From NCBI GenBank assembly GCA_040285745.1, contig JAUFOR010000008.1, forward strand, positions 682,001 to 746,000: a DNA stretch of 64,000 bases. The letters are read 5' to 3'. The notes beneath the pieces are model-generated. The model was not told the origin of the DNA. It made no database searches and saw only the letters and a list, made by a program, of their open reading frames with translations. This document shows positions 7,812 through 61,127 of the stretch, in pieces (position 1 is the first letter of the stretch; each line of letters starts with the position of its first letter). The position numbers were made by a program, and so were the translations under genes. The stretch comes from Barthelona sp. PCE (lineage: Eukaryota).

Positions 7812-7838
7812 ACACTAATTCGTTATACGTTAATCATT

Positions 7839-7846
7839 CCTTTTCA
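7839..7846 (+). promoter_or_regulatory. CCTTTTCA candidate core-promoter/initiator element
   Basis: 32 nt upstream of ATG 7879; the same 8-mer precedes other genes. Confidence 0.55.
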
Positions 7847-7878
7847 CTAATTTAGTGTGTTTTGAACCCGTAAAAGGT

Positions 7879-10095
7879 ATGCCACACTATCAGGGTAAGC
7901 GTGTTTATGCACCATTGTTATCAGAGGAGGAGAAAGAGGAGCCATTTTTCCGCGAACGCACTTCGGGTGGTGAATTCACAAAGTATGATGAGTATCTCGC
8001 GTGCCACTACCTCCTCAAGGAACGTATTTTTAATCAAAGTTATTGTAAGCCAGGAAAACTTGTATCTTTTCATGAAGCACTTGTACAAGAGCAAAATGAA
8101 ACTAAGAAACGGTTTGAAGTGCCAGATCAATGCATGGTTGATGTTGAGAATCATCTAAAAGCATTCAAACATGATTCTTTTGAAGAACTTGTTGTCAAAG
8201 CTCTTCCTATCATTCAGCAATTTCCTCTGAAGGGTGAGAAGGTACGCCTTGAGCAGCACCAGGGCCAGCCTGACGGTTATATTGTTGGCTACGCCGAGTC
8301 TCTGGATGAGCACTCTAAAGACTATGGGACTGCGATCGGTCAACCAGTATTTATCACTGTTAAGGTCGATAGGCGTCTTGTTACTGTGCCTAACACAGAG
8401 TCAGAAATTGCAGCGTATAAGTTTCACGCAGACGAGTATTTTTCTCGCATCGTTGTTGATAGTTTAATCAAAAGAGGACGTTTGCAATGTGACTTCACAT
8501 CACAGGTATCACTTGGCACCCTGGCAAAGAATATCCAAGTTGAGGAAGTGGAGCCAGAGAAGAAACCTAGAAAACCACGTAGGAAAAAAATTAAGGGAAA
8601 AACAGTCACTTTACCAAGTGGTATTGTGGAGGAGAACTCTCGTCTGGCGTTCCCGTGCGAAGACAGCGATGTTGAGATGGTGGAAGATAAGACAGGCATG
8701 CTCAAGAGTGAGAGACTGACTGTTGCTTTACCTGAGAGCATTGATATTGTAGAAGACGCTTCTCTTACCGTGCTACTCAACACGTATTCACTTCTCACAT
8801 TGTTTAATGATTTCTTTGTTGTCCCAACTCCGTCTCTCAATGATTTTTTGGTCGAATTCTCATCAGATTTCATGTCGAATCTTTGGATTGAGCTCTGGAT
8901 CGCAATAATCCAAGCAGGAATAGTCTGCTTTGACGTTTACAAAAATATGGTTGCTGTTACACCAGAGAACGTGTTGGATGTTGCACTTGAAGCTTTGAAA
9001 GGATTTGTCGTTGATGATGAAAAGGCAAAGGCAATTGTTGAAAGCATTTCTTTCCCTAGTTTTGAGGAATTGTTTACGCATCTCCATGATGAGGGGGAAA
9101 ATGCTGAAGATCTCAAATTTGTGAAAGAAATCGTTGAAAGTATGGAGTTTGAGTGGATTTACAGTGTTGAACCCGAGCAGAAGAAGGTTGTCAAAGAAGT
9201 GGAGGACGAGGATGTTGATTATGAGGAATTTTTCTATGAATATGTCAGTGAGGAATCAGAAAACGAGAGTGATGGTGTGTACGAGAGTGATGATGGTTAC
9301 GATAGTATAAGTGGTGGTGAGGAAGAGTCTGCTGTTGAGACTGCATCAGAGGATGAAGTTGAGATGGAGGAATCCGAGATTGAGAGCGAAAGCGTAAAGG
9401 AAGAGGAGCCAGTCCAGAAGGAAGAAGAAAGTGAATCAGAAGAAGTAGTAGTAGAAGACCTCACATTGGAAGAGCGCATCAGCAGAGCGTTAAAACAGCA
9501 ACGAAGTAGCGATAAAGGATATGATGCAATCACCGACACTGTTAAAGTACCATATTTTTTGAGCAAAAACTTTGAGCGACGCTTGTTCTTACGTATGCAG
9601 CTGTGTTACAGATCGCTTACAGAGGAGCAACGTGTTCAACTACTTGATTGGTTTGTCTCTGGTATTATTCGTACCGAAAGTTTCCGAGCAGCTGTTGTTG
9701 AGAATGTTGAGAATAGCATATCAACGAGGATCATTCCGTTGGGTTATGACAGGAATAGGAGACGTTATTGGCGATATCCCAACTCAACAGATATATATGT
9801 TGATCGATATTTTGAGATAGCAAAGCTGAACAATTGTTTCACACATGAAGTCGATGAGTTACTACAATCAGAAACCAATGAGGCGCTCTGGGGATACTTC
9901 TCGGTCGATATGATTGAAAGCTTGAAGAAAACCCTTGATGTTAGAGGTATTAGAGAGAGGGGTTTACATGAAGCTCTAACAGCATTCCAAAAGGAACAAC
10001 CCAAAGAGCATGAAGAAGTAGCTGAACAGGAAGATCCTTTAAAGTACCTCCTTACAAAGAATAAGAGACGCAATCGGTATTATTCATGGAAATAA
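7879..10095 (+). CDS. WAC-DDT-WHIM domain protein (ACF1/BAZ1A/Itc1-like ISWI accessory subunit) lacking PHD and bromodomain
   Basis: WAC-like N-terminus (GEFTKYDEYL...ERIF...SFHEALVQE), DDT-like LLNTYSLLTLFNDFFVVPTPSLNDF, WHIM2/WSD PLGYDRNRRRYW and WHIM3 LDVRGIRERGLHEAL. First ATG is at 7879; the ORF track starts at a GTG. Confidence 0.8.
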   Translation: MPHYQGKRVYAPLLSEEEKEEPFFRERTSGGEFTKYDEYLACHYLLKERIFNQSYCKPGKLVSFHEALVQEQNETKKRFEVPDQCMVDVENHLKAFKHDSFEELVVKALPIIQQFPLKGEKVRLEQHQGQPDGYIVGYAESLDEHSKDYGTAIGQPVFITVKVDRRLVTVPNTESEIAAYKFHADEYFSRIVVDSLIKRGRLQCDFTSQVSLGTLAKNIQVEEVEPEKKPRKPRRKKIKGKTVTLPSGIVEENSRLAFPCEDSDVEMVEDKTGMLKSERLTVALPESIDIVEDASLTVLLNTYSLLTLFNDFFVVPTPSLNDFLVEFSSDFMSNLWIELWIAIIQAGIVCFDVYKNMVAVTPENVLDVALEALKGFVVDDEKAKAIVESISFPSFEELFTHLHDEGENAEDLKFVKEIVESMEFEWIYSVEPEQKKVVKEVEDEDVDYEEFFYEYVSEESENESDGVYESDDGYDSISGGEEESAVETASEDEVEMEESEIESESVKEEEPVQKEEESESEEVVVEDLTLEERISRALKQQRSSDKGYDAITDTVKVPYFLSKNFERRLFLRMQLCYRSLTEEQRVQLLDWFVSGIIRTESFRAAVVENVENSISTRIIPLGYDRNRRRYWRYPNSTDIYVDRYFEIAKLNNCFTHEVDELLQSETNEALWGYFSVDMIESLKKTLDVRGIRERGLHEALTAFQKEQPKEHEEVAEQEDPLKYLLTKNKRRNRYYSWK

Positions 10096-10110
10096 AACCA
10101 ATCAAACTAA

Positions 10111-11505: not shown

Positions 11506-11584
11506 GCAATGAGTTATTCAAGTACTAAACCAAAAGAGAAGGTGTATTTACATATAACACCTCCGTCAAAGCAATGTTTTAGTA

Positions 11585-12748: not shown

Positions 12749-12801
12749 TAAAACTTGTGAGTTTGAACAATATTTTGATAAATTGTTTCAACACATTCAT
12801 T

Positions 12802-12809
12802 CCTTTTCA
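12802..12809 (+). promoter_or_regulatory. CCTTTTCA candidate core-promoter/initiator element
   Basis: 10 nt upstream of SCAMP ATG 12820. Confidence 0.6.
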
Positions 12810-12819
12810 TACTGTTATT

Positions 12820-13429
12820 ATGTCAACAGAACAAAAAATAACCTGGACACACTATAATTATCCCCCTGTACTAAGGCTTGTGCATCTGAATATTAATGAA
12901 CTGCCTTCTAATCGTATTTTACCTGCACGTTTAGCTCATTGGTCGTTTATTATGATGGTTATTGGGTTTGTCTTCAACAGTATGTATTTCTTTGCACATG
13001 TAGAGCGACTTATATTTAGCATTGTACAGCTTCTCATTTGTTTTTGACGATGTATCTGTTTGGAAGCCATTTTTTTACAGTCTCTTCACAGGATTAGTGT
13101 ACAGCATGATCGGGGGCTTTGCATTTTATCAGTGTTATCGTTGTTTGGCAATCAACTCTCCTTCAACAACAAAGCTATATATAATCACTGAGGCTATTGT
13201 TAAGGTCATGGTGTTCTATATTTTCATCACTTGTAGTAACAGCTCACATGGTGTTATGTGTTTAGCCAATGATTTAACAATTTTTGGTTATATTTTCACA
13301 ATTATTGAGAGTTTATGTTATTTATCATCCATTGCTTTGAGTGTCTTTGCCTTTTACAAAATTTATCATGCTATTTTTTCCGCAGCTGCTCGTTTAAAGT
13401 CCATTCGTAATCGTACTAGTCGTAAATAG
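12820..13429 (+). CDS. SCAMP-family four-TM membrane trafficking protein; exons 12820-12979 and 13020-13429
   Basis: NYPP..RLVH..I.E.P motif in exon 1, CYRCLA E-peptide-like segment and about four hydrophobic helices. The two ORF-track frames join cleanly after removal of a 40-nt GT-AG intron. Confidence 0.7.
12980..13019 (+). other. spliceosomal intron, 40 nt, phase 1
   Basis: GTATGT...TATTTAG. Removal gives AAC A|CA TTG TAC, restoring one continuous frame. Confidence 0.8.
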
Positions 13430-14182
13430 ATTATTCTCTTTGTTTAATTGTATGTTTAAAAGATCTTTCATGTAAATCACATCATTTTGAGGTAATTCCG
13501 GTCCATAGACAACGGCCATTGCATATGAATGATTTTCAATACTAATCACATCGATTATACATTGTAACGGAACATCACAATCATCACACATACACGCCAC
13601 TCTCACGGGTCCACCTACACACTTTGAAATTGATGAATAGTCGAATTGTAGCCGTCCTACATCAAAAGTAAGCCCCAGTCCCATACACTTGGTAACGGCC
13701 TCTTTTAGAGAAAACAGATGATGAAAGTAACGTAACGCTTCCGATGAGTTGTCCTCTGCTGTTGATTCAAGAAAATAATAGTCAGAATCATTGAGTACAC
13801 CAACGCTATGAAAGTCATTGAAGAACTGCAAGATTGAATCACTTCCATAAGCATGTATGTGTGAGAGATCTATGCCAACGCGTTGCTTTTCATTCGAAAT
13901 AAACGCTAAAAGATGATATGAGTGAGATAAGTTGAAATTCATTGACAAATCTTCATAAAAAGGCATTCTTAAAGCAGTCCTCCTAACTACGCTCCCCGGG
14001 GATCGGTTTTTAATCATAAATCGTGAGAGAAAATACAATTTACGATCCCTTTCAAAATAAAACTCATTGTGCTGCTTAATTTCTTCTTCACTACAAACCA
14101 TAACTAATCTGTCCCTCGTGTACCCATCGGATACTGCGCTAATGGGGATTAAATACACAATATCATGATGAAAAGGTTTCAT
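13394..14182 (-). CDS. 4'-phosphopantetheinyl transferase, Sfp/AASDHPPT type
   Basis: FNLSHS, RVGIDL and FSLKEAVTKCMGLGL motifs; 262 aa fits the monomeric Sfp-type size. Confidence 0.9.
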   Translation of the reverse strand: MKPFHHDIVYLIPISAVSDGYTRDRLVMVCSEEEIKQHNEFYFERDRKLYFLSRFMIKNRSPGSVVRRTALRMPFYEDLSMNFNLSHSYHLLAFISNEKQRVGIDLSHIHAYGSDSILQFFNDFHSVGVLNDSDYYFLESTAEDNSSEALRYFHHLFSLKEAVTKCMGLGLTFDVGRLQFDYSSISKCVGGPVRVACMCDDCDVPLQCIIDVISIENHSYAMAVVYGPELPQNDVIYMKDLLNIQLNKENNLFTTSTITNGL

Positions 14183-14196
14183 ATAACATTTACACC

Positions 14197-15327: not shown

Positions 15328-15587
15328 GCTATATTGTGTAGAAAGTAAAAATGCGCTTTACAGATGGTAGCCTATTTGTTATGGTTTCCTCGGTGTTGCA
15401 CCTACATTATATTTACATTTTACAAATTTTTACAAAGAATAATCTGCAGAATGGTAAAAAAAATTCTTTGCAGGGTTTTCTAAGAAAGCTTACGCTCTAT
15501 CTGTCAAATGTATCCACGTAAAGCACACATTTGATGCTATTGGGTTGCAAATGCAGATAATGAATTATCTTATTGCTTTATTTTCTT

Positions 15588-15596
15588 CCTTTTTCA
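15588..15596 (+). promoter_or_regulatory. CCTTTTTCA variant of the candidate initiator element
   Basis: 6 nt upstream of MFS ATG 15603. It could alternatively be a splice acceptor (TTTTCAG). Confidence 0.5.
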
Positions 15597-15602
15597 GAAC
15601 CT

Positions 15603-17339: not shown

Positions 17340-17354
17340 AAGTGTAAATAATCA

Positions 17355-18608: not shown

Positions 18609-19006
18609 TGAATGTGATAGGGTGCTTGGTCAAAAACTGTAAAGTAGGAAGAAGTTGTGATTACAACAATTGATGCTGTAACTGTTGAATTTATCACATA
18701 AACACAATTGTTGGGTTAAATAGCATAGCTGATTAGCAATGCAAAAGAAGTGAAGTATGCAGAACATATCCCCTGATCTGCAACAAGTAAAATTTTAGAA
18801 CGCTACCTCTACTTATTTAATCATCAGTCCATCTTTTTCAGAGAGTAAGTCATGCTTCACACCAAAGTAACATGAAAGTAAAGGGAACAACTTTTTAACA
18901 CTCCTTCGTTTCATACTAGTGTATAAACTTAGAACAAACACATATAATTAATGTACTTACTCCTTTACAGACAACGACAAAGTGTATAAACCCTGTTATT
19001 CAATTA

Positions 19007-20218
19007 ATGAACTTCTTTCGGAAGGCACAGGAAGCGTTTCAAACCATTCTAAGACCAATCGGTTTACCGGAGCCGCCGTCAAACGATCCGAGACATCACA
19101 ACAATGATGAAACTCCGCAAATTGTTGAAGAAAAACCAGTTCTTACTGTTGCTCAGCGTTTGAGGTTGAAGAAAGAACGCATTGACAATGCACTTCTTAA
19201 CTCTGAAGTGTTTACAGATGACGAATTTCGGGAAATATGCTTTGAAGGTGTACCACCCAATTCTGACAGTCATAGGGGCACATTGTGGCTTCCTCTTCTG
19301 CTAATAGATTTACCAAGATCATATGCCGATTGGAAGCAGTATTTCTCTGATAAAAAAGACTTGTATAACGAATTTGTTCGTGATTTTTATCATGGAAGGC
19401 CGACAATAGCGAGAGATCCGCTCGGTGAAAGCCCTGAGTGGGATGAATACTACAAGGACCAAGATATCAAGTTTGAGATTGCCAAAGACGTTGTGCGTAC
19501 TCACCGTGGTCTTCATTTTTTCAACATTGGTATTGACGCTGAGGGTTTAGAAATGCATACACCAAGCGATGAGATATTCAAAGTTCTTAATGCTTGTGAA
19601 CACCACGCTGCTTTACATAGAATCTTGTTTGTCCTCTCAAAAGTTAACCCCGCTCTACAGTATGTGCAGGGTATGAATGAACTAAGCGCACTCATATATT
19701 ATGTATTATACAACTCTACATCGCACCTGAAAACGCTCGACATTGAATTTCATGCGGAATCAGCCGCTTTTTGGGCTATGAACTCGTTATTAAGTGATAT
19801 TGGAGGTTTGTTTTCGACTCAAATGGATCAGACTGAAGCGGGGATGCGTGGAGCGTTCCGTAAATATCGAAAACTGATGAGAAAAGTCGATCCAGAAATG
19901 GACGATCATTTCCGTTCAATATGTTTGGAGGAAGAGTTTTATTTGCTCAGTTGGATTACTTTGTTCTTCACACAGCTGTTCAGTCTTCCTGATGTTATTC
20001 CTCTGTGGGACTTTTTCCTGAGCGAAAAGAATAGCACATCACGATTAAATCGTGTTTTAATTTTTGCGGTTTCAATTTTTGAGTTAGAACGTGAAAAATA
20101 CCTGTCAATGAATCTGAGTGAGATATTAACAGATGTCCAGGAAGTGAAGGCTGCCCCTAATGAGATTCTAAAGCATGCAAAAGCTCTAGTTAAGGAATTC
20201 TTTCCAAATACTGTTTGA
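19007..20218 (+). CDS. TBC-domain Rab GTPase-activating protein (TBC1D13-like)
   Basis: IAKDVVRT (Arg finger), YVQGMNE (Gln finger), WITLFFTQ and LPDVIPLWD. Confidence 0.92.
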   Translation: MNFFRKAQEAFQTILRPIGLPEPPSNDPRHHNNDETPQIVEEKPVLTVAQRLRLKKERIDNALLNSEVFTDDEFREICFEGVPPNSDSHRGTLWLPLLLIDLPRSYADWKQYFSDKKDLYNEFVRDFYHGRPTIARDPLGESPEWDEYYKDQDIKFEIAKDVVRTHRGLHFFNIGIDAEGLEMHTPSDEIFKVLNACEHHAALHRILFVLSKVNPALQYVQGMNELSALIYYVLYNSTSHLKTLDIEFHAESAAFWAMNSLLSDIGGLFSTQMDQTEAGMRGAFRKYRKLMRKVDPEMDDHFRSICLEEEFYLLSWITLFFTQLFSLPDVIPLWDFFLSEKNSTSRLNRVLIFAVSIFELEREKYLSMNLSEILTDVQEVKAAPNEILKHAKALVKEFFPNTV

Positions 20219-20227
20219 GATCACTCA

Positions 20228-21454: not shown

Positions 21455-21843
21455 AATGAATGAAATAGAGAATAAAAAGAAAAACAACTCCTTTATATGA
21501 TACAACTATTACTATATCTTCTAAAGGGGTAAAATTGGGGTTTTATCTCCTGTCAAACTGCAATGCAGATGAAATTGCGTTCAACATGAAGGCTCAAAAT
21601 CTGCTCTTGGCAATTCTGCTGATTTCTTATGTACCCATCATTTGTTGTGGGAAAACTTAATACTTATACATGTTTTTCGTTCTTAATAGTGAAAAAAAGA
21701 GTGTATAAACATGTTTCTCAAATCAAATCCATTGCTTATCGTTCACATTTTAAACTCTTACACCATTCCAGTAAACGCTAAAATTGCGAATAACACCGTA
21801 ATTCAAATACCAAACTCCTGTCTAAAATTTGTTACTCTTTTTC

Positions 21844-22599
21844 ATGTTCAAATACACGTGTTTCATTTTATTAACCGTGCTTATTGGGGCCTGCATGGGT
21901 GCCAGACATACATTTGATCGTAGCGATCCTACTTCTTCATATATATGTCTTGATGGCAAAATGAAATGCATTACTTTCAAAAACAACAAGGTTGACGGCA
22001 CATATTTCGATCTGACCTATAACTTCACATCGCATAGACTAGTATTTGGTGGAGAAAATTTCCTTTTCAATGATGTTAAGTCTAGTTTCGTTAAACTCGG
22101 TCACATTTCAGGATTACATGATGCCTTCCACTTCAGCGACCGCTTTGGAGGCCTTGAAAGTTATGAGAGTCTCCATTGTGTTGATAAAACTGTCCTAATC
22201 AAAAGTGATGAGCAAGGCAAGGATTTTCAAACAATCAGTTCAACAGACTCTATTTTTATTGACGGCAATCTCGTTCTCAACAATGCTGTTGTTCCTGATG
22301 TAGGTTCCGTGTATGTAGGACGAGTTGTCTCAAAGATACATGAACATGATGTTGTGTTGAAACTTATTCCTTTAGAAGTATCTCAATCAAGAGTCACAAT
22401 TCTATACAGTACTATCGATATATTGGAAGGAGAAGTATTTCCGTGGTCACTGTTTTTCATCGCTCTTCTGTTACTCACCGTTGTTGTTTTGGCTTTGTTT
22501 TTGAGGAAGATAATCAAGAAAGATAATCAAAAGAAGCAAAGAGCCTTTTTAGTAAGCAAAGCACGATCAAAATCGAATATATATGATGATGTATTTTAG
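21844..22599 (+). CDS. hypothetical type I membrane protein
   Basis: Signal-peptide-like N-terminus, beta-rich ectodomain, TM segment WSLFFIALLLLTVVVLALFL, and a basic tail ending YDDVF. Confidence 0.7.
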   Translation: MFKYTCFILLTVLIGACMGARHTFDRSDPTSSYICLDGKMKCITFKNNKVDGTYFDLTYNFTSHRLVFGGENFLFNDVKSSFVKLGHISGLHDAFHFSDRFGGLESYESLHCVDKTVLIKSDEQGKDFQTISSTDSIFIDGNLVLNNAVVPDVGSVYVGRVVSKIHEHDVVLKLIPLEVSQSRVTILYSTIDILEGEVFPWSLFFIALLLLTVVVLALFLRKIIKKDNQKKQRAFLVSKARSKSNIYDDVF

Positions 22600-22637
22600 T
22601 AGGAACGTACTGCGTTAAATAGTAAACTTTAGCATAA

Positions 22638-24485: not shown

Positions 24486-24614
24486 TTAACAATAAATATG
24501 GAAGAAAGGATGTAATGCAAAAAACAAACCGCTTTACTTATTTCAACGTTATTTCATTCTTCTCAAAGGGTTTAATCCTTGTTTTATTGTCTTTTTAACA
24601 CATATATTACGTGA

Positions 24615-27017: not shown

Positions 27018-27103
27018 GTTGTTAAGGAATAACTTCACAAAAACGGCGAACTATTATTCAACATCTAAACAACTGATTTTACTACATATTAAACCACAAA
27101 ACT

Positions 27104-28804
27104 CTAACCTGCGAAACTTGCTGATCTTACTAAACCATTTGTTGAGAATTGCCTCGAAAACTGACTTGGAGCAAATGAACTGTGACGTTGTAATGTAGGA
27201 GCTTCTTCTTGAAGCTGGTTTATGAGGTTTGTGAGTTGTGGAATGGGATTTTCCATTTTTAAATGAACCTTTGCTGTTGTTTTCAAAAAATTCAATCGTG
27301 AACGATCAAGCATGAGTCTCTTTAACTTTGGTTTCATATAAAAATAATTTGCTATGGCAACAAAACTTCGAAGAGCCTTCATATCTGATGAAACTTTCGA
27401 AAAAACAAGATATACAAGCTTAAATATTTGTACTGAGTTAAACACCGACTCTTCTTCTGCTTGAAAATGTCCAATCATACGACCAAGGAACTTAAGAAGT
27501 GCGCGTGATATCGTCAACAGTTCTTCTTCCTCAACATCATCAAAATATACATCGTTGAACAAATCGAAAAATTTGAAGTTTTTGAAGTTTCTATACACCA
27601 ATTCTGCAACATCGTAAATCGCCACCAGCTTACTCAATAAGTTCCAATACTCCGGTACCTCAAAGAAATCTTCTAGCTTGATAACTCTAGCTGAATAAGT
27701 ACTGATCATCGTCATCATCTCTGGGGTTCGAATTTTATCAAGAATCTCGACAAAGAAGAACAAAATTGAATCTGCATCGTTCGAGTCGCACTCTTCATCC
27801 TCTAAAGCCATGAAAACCAAAGGAATAACTTTTCCAAAGGGAAAATCACTTAAATATTTAACCATATTTCCAATAGTTAACGCTACATAAGCTGTAATTT
27901 TGGTAATTCTATGATGTGAAGATAAAGTCTCTCGCAATAAATTCGAAACATCATATTCAACCAGTTGTTTCATCAAATCTTCGTCATCAGACATTGATAT
28001 TTGACTAAGAAAATGAAAAAATGGTGAAATGACAGTAGGCATGTCCATGAAATCATACAAAATGCTAAAAAGTATTGGAACAATCCTCAGAAAATTGGGA
28101 ATTCCATCAACACTATACGTTACAGCTAAATTACCTAAAGCACCACATAGAGGAGCAACCATCCTATGATCGCCGCGAAACCGAAGCAGGCAATTTAATA
28201 AGGTGATTATTACATGTTTAGTAGCAAATATTTCCACAAAATCTGTATTCTCATCTAAATTCTTAATTAAGACAGCGAATGACAATGTAAAGAACGGAGA
28301 ATCAAAAAACTTCCACACTTCATCTACATTATTAAGCTCCTCAATCTCCAAATCCTCAAAATCTATTGAATAATCTATCTCATCCTCAGTCAATCCAATT
28401 ATATCATCTCCTTCAATGTCAAACTCCCCTGATGTTGATGAAAATGTTCTAGAACCAACAGGTGTGAAAAAATTTAATATTTGGAAAATTTTCAGCATCA
28501 CTTGTAAGTCTTTTCCATATTTGGTTATTAATTGCGTTATGAGATTCCCAAAATCGCTGTTACATAGTCGTATGAGATTTTGTAATCGGTTTGCTAGCTT
28601 TCTGTCTGAAACCAATTCCAAAGTATCAGATAAAAGTTGAACTACGACCGGTCTATCTTCAATATGTTGCAAGCTAAATCTACAAAAGGCTGTGAAGTCT
28701 GCTTTCCTTAAGGATCTTCTGATATCTGTGTCATTCAGAAGAAGACTGTCTAGGGAATCAATTGCAATAACCTTCTTGGTAGCTGTTTGCCATCTGCCCG
28801 ACAT
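27104..28804 (-). CDS. ARM/HEAT-repeat-like hypothetical protein
   Basis: ARM-like helices (CGALGNLA, ALTIGNM) in a 566-aa ORF. Confidence 0.65.
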   Translation of the reverse strand: MSGRWQTATKKVIAIDSLDSLLLNDTDIRRSLRKADFTAFCRFSLQHIEDRPVVVQLLSDTLELVSDRKLANRLQNLIRLCNSDFGNLITQLITKYGKDLQVMLKIFQILNFFTPVGSRTFSSTSGEFDIEGDDIIGLTEDEIDYSIDFEDLEIEELNNVDEVWKFFDSPFFTLSFAVLIKNLDENTDFVEIFATKHVIITLLNCLLRFRGDHRMVAPLCGALGNLAVTYSVDGIPNFLRIVPILFSILYDFMDMPTVISPFFHFLSQISMSDDEDLMKQLVEYDVSNLLRETLSSHHRITKITAYVALTIGNMVKYLSDFPFGKVIPLVFMALEDEECDSNDADSILFFFVEILDKIRTPEMMTMISTYSARVIKLEDFFEVPEYWNLLSKLVAIYDVAELVYRNFKNFKFFDLFNDVYFDDVEEEELLTISRALLKFLGRMIGHFQAEEESVFNSVQIFKLVYLVFSKVSSDMKALRSFVAIANYFYMKPKLKRLMLDRSRLNFLKTTAKVHLKMENPIPQLTNLINQLQEEAPTLQRHSSFAPSQFSRQFSTNGLVRSASFAG

Positions 28805-29229
28805 ATTATTCGTATTTTGCCCGTATTTTAGTGTTCAAAAACTTGGAACGCAAAAGAAATCACCATTTTCAAACGAAATGGGATAAATTTGATATAGCGC
28901 AATTTTATCATTCAGTAAAGCTACCTGATGACATGCTCAAGCTTTGCAACTTACTCAACCACTACAAACGAATAGGAACAAACCTCACATGATAACTCTA
29001 CATGTATAATTATATCTGGGTTTAAAATCACTGATTGACCAAATATACTTTAAAAACACTTCACTTTGAGCAAAATCGAACAAAAATTATCAAACTTAAA
29101 CATTTTGTGGTTGGAACTTTAGTTCATCATAACACCACTTAAACGTGGTAAAATCCACAATAAACGGTTTGGTCCTAAAATTGGATCAATATTCATAATG
29201 AAACCTTTTTTCTTACCTCTTTCACATAA

Positions 29230-32200
29230 ATGGATGAATTTATATCATTGATTAGTGCTGATTTAAGATACGACGAATTGTTTTCTGCTATTTATAAGTC
29301 AGAAATCGATATTTCCTTATTGAAACTGGAAGATATGCAAAGCCTGAAAGCTAAGCGTATTTTTATCGACTTATGCATCTCCCGCAAGGCATATGACTTG
29401 GTTTATGGATTCGGGATAAATTCAGATGTCGCCTGGGTTAGAAAATACGTCTCTAATTTACTCAATAAGCATAAAAGATTTGCACATCACATGCTTTCTA
29501 AAGAAGACTTTTTTGATGTTTTTTTGTCAGCTCCCATTGTTTTTAGAGAAAAATTCCTTTGTTTATTAGCCCGTTTAGGTCGTTATGGGAAATACAAACA
29601 CATTGCTGATGCATTCATCACAAACCCAAAATATGGATCACTCATTAGTGGTGAGAAACGTCGCTCCCTTTTTGTTGCTGCCAGTCTTGACGTTGCACGT
29701 GGCTATATTGAAAAGTATTGGGAAGAGAAGAAAAGCATTCAAGAATTCTTTTTGCAACCCAGGTTCTATATTATATTTGATGAAATAGTTTTTAAGCTTG
29801 CTAACCGCAATCATCTTTCCACTTTTCATACGAATTTGAAAAATGATATCCATTTATATCGTTTCTATAATTGGATTTTAAATGATGAAGAAAAATACGT
29901 CAGTCTTGCAAAGCTTTTGCTATCAAAACATTTTAGTTTGAGTAAGTTTGTTGAAACCATATATGGATTTAAGCTTAAAAAGAAGAAGTTATGTACACGA
30001 ATTATTCTCAAATTTGCTACAACATACCCCAATGATTTTTTGGAAATTTACAACAGCGATTTACGGAATAGACGATTTACTTTTAGATTATATCCATTTT
30101 TTAAACAATATCTTAACGACGATAAATACGTTGAAAGTATGAAAATTTTTTATGCTAATACAAGAATGAAATTCCGAGACTTTGCTAAGAATCATGAAGA
30201 AAATGGAATTGCTTTTTCTACCGATCCTAAAGGTGTGTTTGTTCGCGTGTTGGACATGTACCTTTCAGTCAAATCGGATGTGTTTAAAATATCCAAAGAT
30301 GCTGCATCCTTGTCATCAGGCGATCTTTTCAAATCGTTTGTAGCTGTTTCTGAATACATGAGTCTTGATGGGAAATGGGAGCTCTTTCCCCAAGTGTACG
30401 AGAAAAAAAAGAGAATTGCAAACTATTTTTATCGTGTTCTGGATCATCAGGATTACTGGACTAAATACTTCAAACCAGAACACATGTTTAAATCATCACT
30501 TATTTCGTTCTTCCACTACATCACAGTCGAACGTGCTGTCACACCTAAACCCGAGTACACCATCAGAATTAATCAAGATGACGTAGAGGTCAGTCAAATA
30601 CTGTATTTCCTTTTTGGAAGGAATGGACTTGTACACACACATCCATCAGCTGCACTACAACATGCCGTGATGCATTTCATTTGCACAGGAGACTGGTCAC
30701 AATGGGGTGTTGTGCAGAATCTTATTCCTCTTATTCACAATCGTGAAGTCCACGCTTCTTTACCGATTTTCAAATTCAATACATCATGTTTCTTTTACAA
30801 GCCAGAGACCGTTAAGAACTTTGCAGAATATATTCGATTGATAATGGATCAATCATACGCTTCCAATGTATTTTATAATATTTCACTGTTCCAGTCCGTT
30901 ATGAACCATAAAATTGCACCGTACTACTTTCCAATTGAAGTCGTGCAGAATTACTTCAACACTATGCTGCCCATATACGTTGAATATGACGAAATTATCT
31001 GTAGGACCGATGATTCAGCATTTCCAATGAGCAATACGATGAGTTTTAAAGATTTGTACAGTCAGAAACCTTGCTTCATTCTTCCTTCTTCCTTTGAGAA
31101 GGGTAGGCAATTCCGATCTATTGAAAGAAAGGCGCACAAACCAAAAATGTTCAACTGCGTCAGTGAAGAAATGTACAAATTTGTGATTGAAGCTCTGATC
31201 GATGGTCAAAACAATACCAATACGGACAATACCACGTACCAACAACTCTTCTCAGCTTTAATATCGTGCCTGGCTAATACTACATCGAATGTTGTTGTTG
31301 AAGATGAAGACACATTGTGTAGGATTCCAAATTCTGAAGTAGTTCGCTCATTATCAATGAATGAATACATCATTCTGTGCAATGGTTCGTGCAGCGCTAA
31401 GCTTTGCAATTTACTTGTTGACCGTCATTTAAAACGAGCCAATCCTTTGAAACAACATCGCAACGATCGACCAAAACTGAAGCACAAGGTCATTATCAGT
31501 TATTCAGATCCATTAACTAACAAACGTATCATCAGCAAGGGTGATTTGAAGAAGATTCACAAAATCCATTCGCCCTATGATATCCCAAACATGGAACGCT
31601 TTGATTCATTGATGTGTCAAGTGAGAGATGATGTTGTTGAAATGTTGCCCATGTTTTTAGACATGCTAAACACATATGTACGCATCGAGAGTCTTGATAA
31701 AAATATTAGAAAATTGGCTATTGCCAATTTGGATGATGAACAAGTGTCTATTACGTTTAATGCTTTGAAAAAAGATCGTAAAGGTGAGTTTGAGTATCTA
31801 GAATCATTGAGAGACATTGTGCCTCTTCCTTTGTTGAAGCGCCACTTACGTACCTTGAGATATGCGCTTGATGTCTCCACATCATTCGTTGACGAGGCAT
31901 TTTTACAAGGTATTGCCGGCTGTCTTCAGCTCACTAAACGTTCATCCGGAGATAATCAGATTTTGTCGATTGTTAGATGGATTTTTGCATCACTTTATCG
32001 CATCATGTGCGTCATGGACAAGAGCTGGTCGGATCGATCCCGTGATACATTCTTGAAGTCTCTGGTATACGCAAGATCTGCGCCTATCACACGAACTTTT
32101 TTCGAAGGATATTTAAAACATACAACTGTTGTGGAACAGAAGCGTCTCTTTGATGATTTAGTGGCATTAGTCGACGAATCTGGTGATAGTTTCGGCATCA

Positions 32201-33585: not shown

Positions 33586-33591
33586 ATCTTA

Positions 33592-34647: not shown

Positions 34648-34873
34648 TTTCTATCGTTGTTTTTGTGAAATAGAAAAGAATTGGAATAACACAGCGATAA
34701 CTTTATTTATTGTCTCTATCATTCACATGAGAGGCTTTTGGTTTCAAAAAAATGCTTTTTATGGATCAACAGCCTATATTATACCGCTCAATTGTACAAT
34801 ATTCACTTTTGTAAACAAAACAGGCTGCAATAAATAATTTGTACTGTGATTACGCTAAAAAAACGAAACTATC

Positions 34874-34914
34874 AATGAATTTATTCATTAAACAGTTCTA
34901 GAACTAATGAATAA
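34874..34914. repeat. nested inverted repeats in the Kir/GPAT divergent intergenic region
   Basis: AATGAAT-tt-ATTCATT overlaps TTATTCATTA-aaca-GTTCTAGAAC-TAATGAATAA. Confidence 0.6.
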
Positions 34915-35054
34915 TAATGGGTTATAAACATACTTATGCAGTTCCTGTACTTGTTTTGCAGTACTTGGGTTTCCTTGAACCACAAATTCACCCTTCATAA
35001 AAAGATTTCAGTATCATTTATTTGTTTCTTCGATTATCTCTTTTTCTAAACATA

Positions 35055-38063: not shown

Positions 38064-38131
38064 TTAATGAAAAAAAAAAGCAAAAAAAATGAAAAATCAC
38101 TTGAATGAGGTGGAAATAATGAAACATTCAA

Positions 38132-40105: not shown

Positions 40106-40168
40106 AGCGTGAACGTAAAATTATGATACAGGGTATAATGTCTAAAACATCGTTTTAAATCATATACT

Positions 40169-40176
40169 CCTTTTCA
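40169..40176 (+). promoter_or_regulatory. CCTTTTCA candidate core-promoter/initiator element
   Basis: 18 nt upstream of IFT139 ATG 40195. Confidence 0.6.
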
Positions 40177-40194
40177 TTCGCTGTTCTGTATAAG

Positions 40195-43100
40195 ATGCAG
40201 GACCTATCAACATTCAAGTACTACTTCAGAGAGGGGTTCTTCAATATTGCGCGTTCGTACATTGCGAATGAAATGAAACTTCAATCTATGAAGCCTGAGC
40301 TGGTTATATGTCAGGCCATGGTATTGTACTGCATTGGGGAGGTTAATGAGAGTCTGCGCTTACTTCAGCCATTTATAAAATCCGATAATAGCGACCACTT
40401 TCCTCTTACAGCATGTACAGTTTTTCATCACATACAAGATAATATGGAGAGCAAGAACGATGATGTTGTGTTTGAGTATGAGAGCAAAATTGATGATCAC
40501 GAGAACGGTGGTTATATTTCTATTGATGACTTTAATCTGTCCATTTTCTTTCATCATGTTGTAGGAAACTCCTCTAGGGCATCGGATCTCATCGATTCCG
40601 CCGGTTTGGAGGATCCTAGTAACCCAGAACTTGAAAACCTTGGAGCTTGGCAGATTCTCATGTTTCATACAGATGTATCCGATCTTGAAGACGCTTTTGG
40701 CACCTTCAAGTCCCTTGTTAGCGCAAATTATAACTTTGTAGACGCACACGTAGGACTTTTCGAGACCATCATGAAAATTTTGGAAAAGAATTCTAACTCT
40801 GATCTACTTGATGATTTTGATATCACAGAGTTTATCAATTCCTTCATATCCCGCCATTCAAAACTTCCATTTCTCAACGAGATCCGTGCTCGATATTTCG
40901 CTACCAAAAATGATTGGCAGAATGTGTACGGTATAGTCAGTGGTGAGCACACGAGTGTTGTGTCTTCTCTCTACCTCGTCCTGTATTATTGTGTGAGCAA
41001 ATCCAACACAAAGATGCTCGTCAAGTCACTCGAGCATTTATATCGTCTGCTCGATAGTATGGAGACAAACAACCATGCCCTTTGGTTCCACTGTTGCAAC
41101 GTCATTTTTCGGTTTGCATCAAAGAACAAGAATGTATACAAAATCCTGAGCAACATGCTACAAACCGTTATTAAACTGAAGAAATTACCCGAATACCTCT
41201 TACTGTTCTTACAGTTCTCGTATGCCAAGTCTGTGAATTCTTACACAAAGACATATAACTCTCTGAAGTCAATTCCCAATCTGCCAATCTCGTTCTTCGA
41301 GGCAAATACCAGGTTTTTACTAAAATCAAACGATGTAGCACAAGCCAGATCATTCATGAACAGTTTCGCTTCAGTTGCTGAGAGTCTCGGAGAGTCAGCA
41401 GAGTACATCTTCCTCAATGCACATATTTCTTTGTTTGAATTGGGAGACGTCGCTTCCTTCTTCGAAGAAGTTAAACGCTCTCTTGATCAGCACATGCGTT
41501 CTGCCAATCTTTGCATTTCAGGTGAGGACGAGGAAGTGTTTGATGACTTTGATCTGTTTGATGATGCTGAAGGAAAAACAACATCAGCGTTCATGTCTCA
41601 CGTGGAAAGATTAGGCAGTGTCAATCCTCTTTTCCTGACTGACCTATTTGCTGCTGTCTACAGATTCATACCCATCGATGGACTTCCCACTTACCCACTC
41701 AGTCTTCACATTGACACATTCACCTTTATTGAACCTTCTCTCCGTTGCGATCTACCCCTCAACGGTGTTATAGATTTTCTGACGTCCATCGTTGACATCC
41801 TCAATATATATTGCCCTGGATACCTTCCTGGCCAGATGTGCTCAGTTTTACTTCAGCTATTGAAGGGTAAGAAACCACAGCGTGTACTTTCATTTATCGA
41901 GCGTTTAATTGATGAGAATGAGGCCAACCAATCACTGTTGCTCTTACAAGCATACATTCAGCTTCTGTGCGACATTGATCCAAGTATCGTTGATCAGACG
42001 CTTGAGCAGGCGGTGAGTTTGAACTTCAAAATTAGAGATTTTCCCTTCTACAAGGTTCTCACTGCCCGTGTTTCTTTCTTACTGAAAAAGTACTCAATAG
42101 CACTGCAAAACGTGCTAGAAATTCTTCAAAGCTATGGCTTTGTATCGAATTTCGTCGTTAGTAATCTCGAAGTCAACTTAGCAGACATGGTTGTCAATTT
42201 GCCCACACACTTTGTGAATGAGGTGGAGTCTGATCTAATGGATAGCAAGATGGGAGTAGATGCACTTGTCTCTCTCCCAGGACTGCTTAAGGGTGATTAT
42301 TATAATGTATTGTTCATTGAGAGGCTGTACTGTGAGGCAATCATCTATTACAGTCACTATGTCTATCAGCAGCGTTACTCATTTGAGGTCTATCTCAGTG
42401 TGATGACCCAGTTGGTTGATAAGGGATACGATAAGACTGAGGCAGAAACAAGAACGAACGGTGATTTGATTTTTGCTAAACTCTTTTTCTTCACTCTTTT
42501 CGAGTTTTACGATGATTCTACTGATCTTTTAAAGCAGATTTCACCGTCTAGCTCCCGGTACGCCTTCTCCAAGAGGGTAATGGGTCGTATTCTACTTATG
42601 TCCGGCCGAAACCAGGCATTCATTAATGTTTACAAGGATCTATGCTCCCAAAGTGAGCCCAAATCTCTCGACTTTGTACACAATCATCTGATGCTTGCTA
42701 AGGCTTATGAGGACCTCAACAGATGTTTTGAAGCGCTTAACACGTTCGAGATCACCTACAAGACCCTCAATAGAATGATAAAGGATCTCAGACGTTTGAC
42801 GGTATCAGACGAAGAGAAGGAGAGAAGGGCCGCAGAACTTCGAATTCTGGTTGAATCAGTCGTTTTCTCATTGGCTGACATGAAGCTCCGCACTTACAAC
42901 TTCAATGACGCGTATGTATTGTACCAACAGGCGCTTAGAGCAGCAACTAACCCGCTCACTATCATGCGTCTAAAGAAGAGTATCGTTCAAGTATTGGTTA
43001 TCCTCAACAAAAGTGAAGACATAATGAAATTCCTTGACGTTAATGATCTGATGGCGAGATCCACTGCTTATGATAGTGAAACGGTCGAGATCAAGCACGT

Positions 43101-44694: not shown

Positions 44695-45364
44695 AAGACC
44701 GTTTTGATGATGTAAAGAAATCGGAAATTGTTTTTTGCTTTTTGCGCTTTGGTTCCCCTTCATTTCCATGTATAGGACGCAGTGAAGCATGTAAAATTGC
44801 ATGGAACTTGCGTGCCTTTGTCGAACCTACCCCGTCTATAGACTGAATCTCACTTATGGATGCACTACAAATTGCACGAAAGGTTTTGAAACGCTGAATA
44901 ATTGCACTAGCATTAGTAGTTGATAGTCCTGCAATGTGAAAAACGCGCTCTAGTACATCAACAATGTCACCAACGTTCTTCAACTGCGAAGTATCAGAGT
45001 TAAGAGAGTGGTGAGTTAGTAAAGTAATGTACTTTCCTGCCTCTGTAAAACCGTTTGCCATCAACAGAGTGCACCTATTTAGCACACAAAAGTGGTTCAA
45101 CAGGTTAAACGTTTCAGCGGAATCGTCTTCATTAACAATCGCGATAATAAATATGGGATTTTCACCTACCGCTTGTAAAACACAATTTCGAATATAATTG
45201 GGGTTTCTAGTAAGGTATGATACCTCAACAACAAACACAATTATGCGATCATTGAGAAAATAGTGGAAAGATGCATTATCCACAAATTGAATAGAATACC
45301 CCGGAATACAACGTACAACAGGACTCTTACGTTGGTTTTCGTGTGCAACAATACTGTGTGACAT
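44684..45364 (-). CDS. ERCC1: ERCC1/Rad10 DNA excision repair protein
   Basis: Q..SPV, Y...NPNYI and CTLLMA...EAGKYI central domain; tandem HhH motifs (IAGLSTTNA, IDGVGSTKA). Confidence 0.85.
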   Translation of the reverse strand: MSHSIVAHENQRKSPVVRCIPGYSIQFVDNASFHYFLNDRIIVFVVEVSYLTRNPNYIRNCVLQAVGENPIFIIAIVNEDDSAETFNLLNHFCVLNRCTLLMANGFTEAGKYITLLTHHSLNSDTSQLKNVGDIVDVLERVFHIAGLSTTNASAIIQRFKTFRAICSASISEIQSIDGVGSTKARKFHAILHASLRPIHGNEGEPKRKKQKTISDFFTSSKRSSSF

Positions 45365-45400
45365 TCATGAAAATGGAAAGGGTGAAAAATTCGAAAACAA

Positions 45401-47680: not shown

Positions 47681-47772
47681 TCTTTAATTGCAGAAAAGGT
47701 ATACAAATAGAATAACAAGTGTTATAGCTTATCTCACCTTGTACATATATTTTTGGGATATTTATCACACAT

Positions 47773-49299: not shown

Positions 49300-49422
49300 C
49301 TATTTGCAAAAATTTTTGTTTGAGTCTTGAGAAAGAATACATCAAGTTTGTGACACACACACAGTTTAATAAAATTGCAGAAAATTAATTCTTCCATCGC
49401 ACAAGTATTATTCCATTTTTTA

Positions 49423-49430
49423 CCTTTTCA
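49423..49430 (+). promoter_or_regulatory. CCTTTTCA candidate core-promoter/initiator element
   Basis: About 55-65 nt upstream of the giant surface-protein start. Confidence 0.45.
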
Positions 49431-49496
49431 ACGCAGTTGCGCTTCTTTTTTTTTTTTAGTTTCCATGGGGTTAACAGTGAGTATATGCTTAAATAT

Positions 49497-52400
49497 ATGA
49501 ATATAAGAGTTTTTTTGCTGCTTAGTTTGTTCTTCTTAAAAACTTATGCTTCTGTATACGTTTTAACAGAACAATTAATCAAGGATCAGACTTCAATCGG
49601 GAAATCATACTCACATGTTACATTCGAAGATGGAGTTGAACTTAGCGGAGAAGTTTTTCCAAATTTGGAATGCTTCGAACCACTAGATTTGTACTTCCTG
49701 GAACACATGAAGACAATTTGTGGAATATTCCGGAATTTTAAGTCCGTTTACGGACTTACAACAGACACAGTGGAGTTTTGTGAAGATTTTTCGATCACCA
49801 CTAGTGTGTATCAAAATTGGACTATATCTGTTCTTTCATCTGTCTATCCAGTATCACTGCCCACTTTTACGCTTCATGTAGACCAGTTAAACATAACTGG
49901 CACAAAAGTTATTGTGAATCAACTGCTACTATTTGATGAAGCATTTTTCAAAAATGCATTCATCACTGCTCAAGGTGTATTTGCTTATAATCAGTTAATG
50001 ATTGAAGAGACCCTGGTTGGTAATGAACTAACTGTACCCATAACGATCCTTCCCGGAGGTACGTTAAAAATGTATGGTCAAGCAGAAACTCTCAGTATTC
50101 AATTTCTATTACACACAGGTGCAACAGTTGATGGTATCTTAACAACACAACATCATGTATTTGTTAGTAACCACGTTAAATGTACTGAGGGATCTATTGT
50201 AACAGCGTCACATATCATAAAAAAGGATTTTGATCTGTATAATGAAGATTTTGGACTCATTAATACTTATTTCGTTGGATATGAATTTCCAGAATGGTGT
50301 TTTGCACAAACAGACATCGGTTTAGACGAGCACATTGCTGGTTTTGAAGACGAAGCCAAGAAAGCGCTCGTTTCTCGTGAAGGTAACACTATTTCCTTTG
50401 GTGACCGAATATTTGAAAAAGCAGTTCCTAAAACAGTGGAGCATAAACGATATGTTCCCAATTTGAATATCAACAATGCAACTGATATATTCATTGATAC
50501 TGTCTATGCTGGGGATTTCACTGCCATTGGGTCATACATAATTGTGGAAGGGTTGGAATGCGATAGCTTAACTCTTATAGAAACGCCGTTACGGTTCAGA
50601 AAAGCCGACGGTACAGCATCAACTCTTAAAATAGCAACTATATTCGAGACAGATGGTGTAATTCACTTGGAAAATGATGTCATTATTGATGGAAATGCTC
50701 AATTAGGAACTATAGTATGGGGATACGGACACAAATTAACGGTAAATGGTGTATGTTATGTTAATAACAGTATTGTATTGCATGAGTTAACGCTGATGTG
50801 TAGCTCTATTGTGAGAACTGAAAATTCGAACAGATTTATACATTTTGAATTGGAGTATCATACGCTTTTACAAACACAATCTATTGATCTGGGTGTTTTC
50901 TCGCTCTTTTCGACTGACTTATTGTCTGTTTTGGAAGCCCAATTATGCCACATTTCAAACAGCACTACCTTATATTCAGCAAACCTCGTATGCAAGAATC
51001 TGTTTGTTAAAGGTGGTGCTGTGACAGACGGGGTTGCTGCGAGAAACCTTACCTTCAGCGACTTTCACTTTGATATGGAGGAGTGCCCAAAGTTCATTCA
51101 GAAGACTACAGGTAACCTAACTTTTGCTGGAGATACAGACAGTTACAACCGGGAGATAATCCTTTCTCAGTATCTCGCCTACTATGTCCAACACTACCGT
51201 GGCGCGATTGTGCGAACACATACGAACTTAAGGCAAGCTATAACTATTGTGAACTGTGTATTTGATGACCTTCTCATCAATACAAATCACGAAGTTAAGA
51301 TTATGGATTCAACAATCACAAAACTAACACTGATGACGAATATGCGTGTCCGTACAAGTGGTGATGTGAAAGTTGGTGCAATCACAATGTATCATGGGTC
51401 GCGCATCACTGGTGACACGATCCACATTGAGCTGCTGACCATTGATCGTGATATAACTATGGGCCCCTTTAATCTTGCAGTGTATGACAAGATACACTCT
51501 TCAGGAAACCACGTGCTCACAATTATAGACGGGCGCCATATTGCAACAGTTATTGACATGGGATCACCCTTTGGAATTGATGGATCGGGTATTTTTTCTC
51601 CTGAAATGATTATCAACAACGGATCTTGTTCATCTTGTTTGCTGTCAGTTGAAGCCGTGTTGCAAACACCAATAATACAATTAAAAAGCATTCTTCTATA
51701 TGTCAATATTACTGCCAGCATTGAAAAGATAACTATTCAGTACAGTCAAGTGACATGTGCCGGTTTCTGTGAGTTTGGCAGCGTACATATCCGCGAGGGT
51801 GGATCAGTGAGGGTGATGTCAAACTCAGAAACAGATGATGCAATGCTACAGATCAATGATCTGCTCGATATTGACTCTGTTAACGGAGGATTCGCGTCAT
51901 CAAGTTACGTCATCTACATTGCATCATCTGGAACAGCGTACTTTGGTGGAACCGTTAGAGTTGGTGTAGATGCGTATATATACATTGGTAACGCTCTTAT
52001 AATAACTGGAACAGTGTATAATTCGACTGACTGCCATTTGTTCTTGAATTTTTACTGTGCAGTATATCGTTTTTTTGCTCTAAGTGTACCGAGTAACACA
52101 GTTGGTTTAGCTGACGAGTGTAGCACAGTTGAACAACAGAGACGAATGTACTTTCCTTCAAGACCAGACAGGGGGTTTTACCCCACGCCAACAGGTTTTA
52201 GCAGTTTCAAGTTCACAAACAGAAAAATCACCAATCCAGGCAAGTTTCCTGAAACCAATTACGCATACATTGTTATGCCTGATACAGATTTGATAATGGA
52301 TCATTCAAATCACAAAGATTACCCAACGATGATTATAGTTGCACTTCCTGGTGTAACTATTTCAATTTCTGGAGAGTTTCTCATTGAAAGGTGTTATGAA

Positions 52401-60923: not shown

Positions 60924-61119
60924 TTATTTTCAGCAGACAAAATTGTATAACTTGGGCCATAACCGTTCAAAAACGGTTATGACATGTGAAGTAACCATAA
61001 ATGTTTACCACAAAAAATTTTTCCCTCTACACGATAATTTTAGGATGAATAGACCAATAATAAAACATACCCACTTAGTATTTTCTTAAAAATGTAAAAG
61101 CTTGAGACACATAGTCAAC

Positions 61120-61127
61120 CCTTTTCA
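61120..61127 (+). promoter_or_regulatory. CCTTTTCA candidate core-promoter/initiator element
   Basis: 7 nt upstream of Rab ATG 61135. Confidence 0.6.

Follow-up and report, generated by a model that had tools for sequence, protein, structure and literature searches.

Genes of the 64,000-nucleotide window examined here (C8:682001-746000, in a genome of 10.23 Mb in 8 contigs) are preceded by a composite pyrimidine-rich element, found before some 50-80% of genes, which are of all kinds, at a distance of 7-55 nt from the ATG. It joins a core, YCYTTTTCW, to an upstream YGTTWT box. On both sides of it guanine plus cytosine (GC) content oscillates with a period of 121-131 bp, and the phase is set by the element rather than by the ATG. 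Taken as a whole, the sequence evidence is probably best explained if this serves a barthelonid-type metamonad as its general RNA polymerase II core promoter and also as a boundary that phases nucleosomes of 121-131 bp. Position, strand, spacing and prevalence of the element, and the scanned-leader behavior of the sequence downstream, have been demonstrated. An earlier note on this DNA described the composite as a fused core only, and included neither the GTT box at -17 nor the chromatin phasing.

The source, a free-living protist, is treated as a barthelonid-type metamonad of the BaSk clade, not as Trichomonas. The clade is placed as sister to Fornicata (PMC11316075), and the top named homologue of the delta-tubulin comes from a skoliomonad-type metamonad (30% identity). 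One ribosomal protein of the genome is identical to a protein assigned by NCBI to a Barthelona species. A metagenome scan for relatives returned two distant loci with 39-41% identity. The window is gene-dense (~87% coding according to ab initio gene calls), its genes including those for delta-tubulin, IFT139, UTP20, Pan3, ERCC1, and a Rab. The main sample consists of the window and 80 stretches of 10 kb (864 kb; 440 flanks), to which 11 held-out stretches (110 kb, 55 genes) were added for a total of 974 kb, less than a tenth of the genome. The ab initio gene calls came from a Markov model, each start codon being set at the first in-frame ATG; by this rule some of the called starts are wrong. 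The antisense strand of each flank and distal windows served as controls for flank counts.

The exact 8-mer CCTTTTCA occurs nine times in the window, and all five copies that had been reported from sense 5′ flanks (7839, 12802, 40169, 49423, and 61120) are present. Four further copies, lying within coding regions or opposite them, had escaped that list: two are found within coding sequence (22062 and 55892) and two on the minus strand (14176 and 9025). The impression that this frequency is far above chance was correct, since 5 of the 27 window flanks (62 nt) carry the 8-mer against a mean of 0.055 and a maximum of 2 in 5000 base shuffles. The whole genome contains 1069 copies, compared with 399 of the reversed pattern. 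In the 440 flanks it is found 23 times in the sense orientation and never in the antisense or distal controls; CCTTTTCT is as frequent (22, 0, and 0), and CCTTTTC gives 54, 1, and 0, a contrast qualified by the held-out DNA, where 7 sense copies stand against 3 antisense in 55 flanks. Copies are evenly distributed over -50 to -1 and then end at a sharp edge, with 16 in the interval -50 to -41 and one in -60 to -51. CCTTT lies within 55 nt of the ATG in 153 of 489 flanks (24 antisense, 25 distal), and within 20 nt in 54 (controls 8 and 5). Genome-wide positional enrichment, which the earlier note had set as a check, is thus confirmed and is restricted to the sense strand and to proximal positions. 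A core-only matrix scoring at least 8 bits finds sites in 203/431 genes; the antisense control gives 29 and the distal control 25, and 3.9% of coding windows also reach this score. The enrichment is the same for tandem (77/162) and divergent (119/250) genes.

Four expectation-maximization seeds converge on the core, which is present in 82-86% of flanks. Numbered from the first C of the core, the full element of about 30 bp comprises YGTTWT (G at -17), TTT at -8 to -6, and CCYTTTTCW, and is preceded by an A-rich zone. The frequency of G at -17 is 0.72-0.88, and the C positions at -1/0 and +6 are base-specific as well. The spacer to YGTTWT is fixed in 76% of cases and one base shorter (G at -16) in 20%; a three-class mixture model of the upstream box yielded spacer variants only. 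With the core as anchor, GTT with its G at -17 was found at 48 sites where 6 are expected. When cores are defined without that block, YGT at -17/-16 accompanies 46/100 flank cores versus 10/154 coding-sense and 14/274 antisense cores, and a control offset gave 0/100. Across the genome YGTT-N14-CCTTTTC occurs 179 times, compared with 23 for the reversed pattern and 56 with an N17 spacer. The T runs (-16 to -13, -8 to -6, +2 to +5, and +12 to +16) are spaced about one helical turn apart. TATAWA shows no positional peak upstream of starts, where there is only a broad A-rich zone at -45 to -21. A joint model of box and core, whose scores are given in bits with 8 bits as the cut-off for site-bearing genes, places the element in 79% of flanks, with a site at posterior >0.5 in 324/431 genes. 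In the window, which belongs to the training set of this model, 19 of 23 peaks of at least 11 bits fall within 80 nt before a start. The model also improves start annotation: among 80 site-less genes, 26 have a site before a later in-frame ATG.

The sequence between the element and the ATG differs from that upstream. Downstream of the core there are 34 out-of-frame ATGs against 52.8±7.0 expected, and upstream 132 against 125.8±9.7. The frames so opened close by the main ATG in 25/35 cases downstream (14.7 expected) and in 97/151 upstream (96.5 expected). Only these shuffle and frame-closure tests were discriminating; by raw trinucleotide density, ATG was not separable from its permutations. 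As upstream ATGs are purged only downstream of the element, the latter most likely marks the 5′-end of the mRNA, and the sequence that follows behaves, on this evidence, as a scanned leader beginning at the element. The element-to-ATG distance is flat over 7-50 nt. The short leaders of the earlier note are supported: the element behaves like a core promoter that is strand-specific, positioned and genome-wide, with a leader of 7-55 nt.

Averaged about the first C of the core, GC content peaks at -689, -565, -437, -319, -199, -76, +60, 172, 294, 422, 555, 687, and 824, with the element in a trough. The amplitude is 0.033, compared with a null maximum of 0.008 and with 0.005 when stop codons are used as the anchor. 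It is greatest at third codon positions (0.071 versus 0.015 and 0.009), and GC at fourfold sites swings from ~0.23 to 0.43. The period is 126 bp (125-128) over +60 to +560, 131 bp when extended to +860, and 121 bp upstream; held-out DNA gives 125 bp (122-131), and an anchor-free autocorrelation has peaks at 130, 260, 390, 510, and 650. Relative to the element the phase is constant for genes with short, middle, and long leaders (48, 42, 45), whereas relative to the ATG it slides (35, 16, 3). Upstream phasing is also found in 124 tandem genes (0.020 versus 0.011) and is visible in non-coding bases. AA/TT dinucleotides have a period of 10.0-10.2 bp, which keeps its phase relative to the element and stays coherent for several hundred bases; by our arithmetic 121 and 131 bp correspond to 12 and 13 turns of this length. 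The oscillation most likely represents a nucleosome repeat of about 120-130 bp. Protein repeats were rejected as its cause, since synonymous sites carry the strongest signal and non-coding bases show it too.

Distances between back-to-back elements cluster at 18-49, 117-160, 233-279, 365-398, 478-488, and 599-628 bp. Their period is 121 bp (R = 0.72, 49 pairs; 0/1000 jittered nulls), whereas the ATG-ATG distances of the same pairs are not periodic (R = 0.20). Between 60 and 700 bp, 45 of 51 distances lie within 25 bp of 10+121n, where 42% are expected. Held-out pairs are 27, 115, 126, and 2248 bp apart, and those of the window 19, 38, 39, 245, 368, and 369 bp, with two off the grid (314 and 336), each involving a weak or atypical site. 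A 10-bp phasing of the divergent distances is detectable below 180 bp (p = 0.008, n = 31) and gives p = 0.36 over all 66. A dispersed 120-bp repeat was considered as the cause of the quantized spacing, and intergenic BLAST returned a few families of ~235-300 bp and no 120-bp unit among the matches listed. One of these is a ~235-bp dispersed family with copies 98-100% identical, accompanied by a related ~280-bp family (intergenic at loci L003, L015, L031, L072, L077, and L078); a tandem array of ~295-bp units is found at L044-L045.

The histones of this organism (L109-L119) are divergent. In the main H3, Tyr41, Arg42, Arg/Lys53, and Lys56 of solved H3 chains are replaced by Ile, Pro, Asp, and Ala, in what we take to be standard H3 numbering. 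This H3 thus carries Asp at 53, and it ends in an acidic C-terminal tail; there are two more H3-like variants, an H2B with an acidic C-terminal extension, and an H2A with a long Lys/Ala-rich tail. No match to linker histone PF00538 was found in a genome search, which is not proof of absence. In H3, Arg49 and Arg53 hold the DNA ends (PMC8421212), and in the nucleosome built of Giardia histones only 125 bp are resolved (PMC8421212, PMC9396995). Trichomonas has periods of 120.9 and 10.1 nt together with a ~120-bp micrococcal nuclease ladder, and Giardia a period of ~132 nt (Chen et al. 2008, PMC2577358). The signal described here shares with these a 121-131 bp period that is strongest at third codon positions, a ~10.1-bp AA/TT period, loss on anchoring at stop codons, and the failure to find a linker histone. 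In that paper the signal was seen only downstream and transcription and translation starts were not separable; here, by contrast, it is tied to a promoter element, runs upstream as well (tandem genes, non-coding bases), and quantizes intergenic distances. Recent sources consulted here count 151-154 bp among the shortest nucleosome repeats.

These observations can be assembled into a mechanism. A protein or the pre-initiation complex would read both the GTT box and the core from a single face of the helix, and transcription would start within the core to give leaders of 7-55 nt. The bound complex would act as a boundary, with nucleosomes of 12-13 helical turns (121-131 bp) phased on both sides; such phasing would leave the GC oscillation in the DNA, and back-to-back promoters would have to share a single gap (18-49 bp) or be separated by an integral number of nucleosomes. 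The genome encodes two divergent TBP-family genes and three TFIIB-family genes. Both TBP-family proteins retain the first kinking phenylalanine pair, while the second pair is Asn and Tyr (established by alignment for one protein and by eye for the other), a change that recalls Giardia TBP (PMC12209930).

Several observations weigh against this explanation. The joint model is partly overfitted to the ab initio gene calls: at 8 bits or more it recovers 28/55 held-out genes (3 distal, 8 antisense) versus 295/434 training genes. Successive same-strand promoters show no 121-131 bp periodicity in their distances, 34/265 leaders still contain an out-of-frame ATG, and the U2 small nuclear RNA (snRNA) has no clear copy of the element at its 5′-end. 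In addition, the six ribosomal-protein genes examined and TCTP, a small sample, have pyrimidine tracts with weaker scores under the general model; by eye, a CTTCYT(T)-like box near -20 replaces GTT in five of the six and in TCTP (L008, L010, L048, L057, L069, L105). This box possibly marks a promoter subclass of translation genes.

The start in the M5 element of Trichomonas is the second C, the Myb site is CNGTTR, and the consensus of the metazoan TCT initiator is YC+1TYTYY. Smith et al. (2011) is reportedly the source study of the Trichomonas M5 and M3+M5 promoters. Trichomonas vaginalis uses CCTTT as the M5 initiator, alone or in M3+M5 promoters, and has the initiator (Inr) in ~75% of genes (PMC7370421, PMC4693282, PMC4450334). 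Our element resembles M5 in its CCTTT core near the ATG, its short leaders, the lack of a TATA box, the upstream partner, and the supergroup in which it occurs. In Trichomonas, however, M5 is a minority alternative, whereas here the pyrimidine core is the majority form, extended to CCYTTTTCW and with leaders of up to 50 nt. The upstream box departs from the M3 consensus and the Myb site: its GTT is fixed, yet two bases ahead of the G the frequency of C is only 0.17-0.22, leaving YGTTWT without the Myb-site C. A c-Myb-like repeat protein is encoded at L086. The metazoan TCT or 5′-terminal oligopyrimidine (5′-TOP) initiator starts at a C, serves mainly translation genes, and uses TRF2 (PMC6954239). 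Like it, our element has a C followed by a pyrimidine run, YCTYTYY being present in 195/489 flanks versus 37 and 42 in the controls, and two TBP-family genes are present; unlike it, the element serves genes of all kinds, while the ribosomal-protein genes have another upstream box. Spironucleus salmonicida, another metamonad, has a pyrimidine-rich putative promoter motif near the start codon, which is C-rich, ~10 bp before the start, present in 16.7% of genes, enriched in ribosomal-protein genes and accompanied by a TATA motif (PMC3916229); here, by comparison, 50-80% of genes are involved, there is no TATA enrichment and TATAWA is not positioned as in a TATA-box promoter, and the GTT partner is fixed. 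The element behaves like an initiator of the M5/TCT type to which a fixed upstream box has been added, and is not classed as Inr, M3, or TCT because the features defining these were not all found.

The strongest rival, with a rather low probability, is that of a fused M5/Inr with the A of ...TTCA as the first transcribed base (CA+1 initiation after an M5-like tract), making genes whose ATG follows the C leaderless or one-base-leader genes. It has the core-promoter and chromatin parts in common with the explanation preferred here. The earlier note had proposed such a fusion; its CCTTT part belongs to the element, but the TCA+1Py Inr fares less well, as the A is optional and HCAHW occurs at the level of composition. 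CCTTT followed by CAHW is found in 29/489 flanks versus 1 and 1, and ATGs pile up at two distances from the first C, 7 nt (22 sites) and 8 nt (14 sites). Position +7, directly behind the last C, is A in 49%, T in 30%, C in 12%, and G in 9%, which, with so much T and so little G, is unlike a Y/R start, and there is no information beyond it. HCAHW is completed in 73 of 115 CA sites within the element, about as composition predicts, and precedes the ATG in 302/489 flanks in the sense orientation versus 213 antisense and 255 distal, short of Inr enrichment. The coupling of C and A at +6/+7 is modest (126 versus 103.5 expected), so that transcription may begin at that A in some cases.

At 22/323 sites the A at +7 belongs to the start codon. 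Where an ATG immediately follows the last C, it is the main start at these 22 sites and out of frame at 2 (8 versus 2 with the core-only matrix); the preference of the model for A at +7 raises the count of 22 but leaves the frame ratio unaffected. Among these genes is that of beta'-COP, which has a conserved N-terminus; in the alignment with the yeast protein its residue 8 is paired with residue 10. A start at the A would need cap-adjacent AUGs, in ~7% of genes, whereas a start at the first C residues would not. Giardia reportedly translates mRNA with a one-base leader, to judge from the title of Li and Wang (2004). No candidate for the IBD domain of IBP39 (PF10416) was found in the genome, and the control genomes gave no positive either. 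The name "M5BP" used earlier for a factor was not met with in the accessible literature on the subject, where reviews name M3BP. Transcription most likely starts at one of the first C residues, as in Trichomonas M5 and metazoan TCT, a choice made with only modest confidence as to the exact base, with the A after the last C a distinctly less probable site. The fused-Inr idea is the weaker reading.

A second rival, to which we assign a low probability, holds that the tract is mainly structural, its phased T runs excluding nucleosomes or bending DNA, or that it acts at the RNA level as an element of the 5′ untranslated region (UTR), with dispersed starts slightly upstream. The helical spacing of the T runs, the AA/TT phase locked to the element, and the divergence of the TBP-like proteins speak for it. 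Against it, G at -17, C at -1/0, and C at +6 are base- and strand-specific and the spacer is fixed to one base, which together point to read-out by a protein; moreover, the flat ATG distance over 7-50 nt is unlike that of a ribosome-binding site. The earlier note had named splice or trans-splice acceptors as a refuting alternative, and a polypyrimidine tract of that kind in the 5′ leader, although it too would be pyrimidine-rich, on the sense strand and directly before the ATG, is very improbable because the element is not followed by an AG at a short distance: 131/265 sites lack AG between core and ATG, the remaining AGs are spread over 40 nt, G is at 0.06-0.10 in each of the two positions behind the core, and the few predicted introns, of the form GTATG...CTWA(C/T)..TTTAG, end in AG unlike the element.

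As a promoter and chromatin boundary, the element may fit into a more general picture, which we put forward tentatively: a C-starting polypyrimidine initiator would be the default for most mRNAs, the promoter would sit in a near-linker gap, and compaction would proceed in whole-nucleosome steps. Between nucleosomes of 12-13 turns, the promoter gap would barely exceed a linker (136 bp separate the GC peaks at -76 and +60), intergenic lengths would be quantized, and leaders would be capped at ~50 nt by the first nucleosome or by limited ribosome scanning. The sole MIF4G (PF02854) match in the genome is CWC22-like (L097) and there is no eIF4G-type match, which may bear on this cap. A short nucleosome-linked period and CCTTT initiators are known already, and no novelty is claimed for either. 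In the openly accessible main texts searched, no description was found of this element in barthelonids, of a GTT partner at a fixed distance from it, of such an element serving as the promoter of most genes, or of intergenic lengths quantized by the nucleosome-size period; in the main text of PMC11316075, "promoter," "motif," "UTR," and "transcription" occur 0 times. For the sister group of Fornicata this is a first model of the core promoter, and it suggests that initiators of the CCTTT/TCT type go far back in metamonads and can serve as the main form. Nucleosome repeats shorter than the 147-bp core, a result that has been little followed, can be studied here in a clean system: given a small intron-poor genome and a sharp promoter anchor, the question of such repeats is directly testable.

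In the window, full elements on the plus strand are located at 7820-7846 (CGTT box with G at 7822, i.e., -17; core CCTTTTCA at 7839-7846; 15.5 bits) before the ATG at 7879 of a WAC/WSD ACF1-like gene; at 12783-12809 (TGTT box, G at 12785; core CCTTTTCA at 12802-12809; 16.1 bits) before the ATG at 12820; and at 40150-40176 (CGTT box, G at 40152; core CCTTTTCA at 40169-40176; 15.7 bits) before the ATG at 40195 of TTC21/IFT139. The last is 38 bp from minus-strand core CTGTATCA at 40124-40131 (TGTT box; ATG 40105, CLC channel; 15.8 bits). Among the other back-to-back pairs, Pan3 (minus-strand core CCTTCTCT, 11535-11542; ATG 11505; 8.6 bits) and delta-tubulin (plus-strand CCTCCGTCA-type variant, 11561-11568; ATG 11585; 10.2 bits) have elements 19 bp apart. 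A core variant on the minus strand at 15337-15344 (ATG 15327, actin-related; 9.4 bits) is 245 bp from the element at 15589, whose plus-strand core CCTTTTTCA (15588-15596; ATG 15603, MFS transporter; 15.6 bits) lacks G at -17. Core CTATTTCA with a TGTT box occurs twice on the minus strand: at 21461-21468 (ATG 21454, peptidase M20; 19.4 bits), 369 bp from the plus-strand core CTTTTTC at 21837-21843 (11.5 bits), which abuts the ATG at 21844; and at 34666-34673 (ATG 34647, IRK channel; 16.7 bits), 368 bp from a plus-strand TTTTTCTA-type variant with a TGTT box at 35041-35048 (ATG 35055, acyltransferase; 13.2 bits). Core CCTTTTCT on the minus strand (47692-47699, TGTT box; ATG 47680; 19.4 bits) is 39 bp from a plus-strand CTTGTACA-type variant (47738-47745, TGTT box; ATG 47773; 14.1 bits).

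The top score of the window, 26.2 bits, belongs to minus-strand core CCCTTTCCA (45374-45382, TGTT box) before the ATG at 45364 of ERCC1. Further minus-strand sites are a core variant at 18640-18647 (ATG 18608, PNKP; 12.1 bits), CCTTTCTTCCA at 24499-24509 (TGTT box; ATG 24485; 15.0 bits), CTCATTCA at 38102-38109 (TGTT box; ATG 38063; 13.5 bits), and CCATTTCG at 28874-28881 (15.5 bits), which is atypical in lying 77 nt before the ATG at 28804 with a short upstream frame between. On the plus strand, CCTCTTTCA at 29216-29224 precedes the ATG at 29230 (14.9 bits), CCTTTTCA at 61120-61127, without a GTT box, precedes the ATG at 61135 of the Rab GTPase (10.3 bits), and CCTTTACA at 18962-18969 precedes the ATG at 19007 of a TBC RabGAP. 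The variants listed earlier all exist, the minus-strand ones beginning at 24509, 45382, and 47699, but CCTTTACA is a weak match of only 3.0 bits without an upstream box. The minus-strand copy of CCTTTTCA at 14176 lies six bases inside the first codons of a phosphopantetheinyl-transferase open reading frame (ORF), with 11.2 bits and TGT at -17.

The plus-strand core CCTTTTCA at 49423-49430 (12.9 bits) is 62 nt from the ATG of a 3812-residue surface-protein ORF starting at 49485, with TIG and cysteine-rich domains. The first ATG after the element, at 49465, is out of frame with this ORF; a short 5′ intron, an upstream ORF, or a sequence error in 49423-49500 are possible reasons. Behind the element at 12802, a 40-nt plus-strand intron, GTATGT...CTTATATTTAG, is predicted at 12980-13019. 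Its removal would create a two-exon frame (12820-13429) for a 189-residue membrane protein with an NYPP motif, a previously unlisted gene, the product of which we presume to be SCAMP-like; the separate exons gave no Pfam match.

An initial search for introns gave 224 clusters, too much noise to be of use, and stricter lists were read by eye. Three introns in ribosomal-protein genes (L008:641-685, L010:5904-5948, and one ending at L048:630) have a common 3′-end, CTTACATTTAG, which suggests a fused branch point and acceptor; CTWACHWTTAG is no commoner than its reverse (11 versus 11). The U2 snRNA (L085:1501-1673) is divergent, with a two-base insertion after the branch-pairing GUAGUA, and a search for U1 snRNA did not detect it. 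At the other end of the genes, in the 974-kb sample, convergent neighbors have a median gap of 19 bp and their 3′-ends frequently overlap. AGTAA/GTAAA is enriched on the sense strand at or just after stop codons (120 versus 50 of 503), which resembles the AGURAA poly(A) signal of Giardia (PMC9014877).

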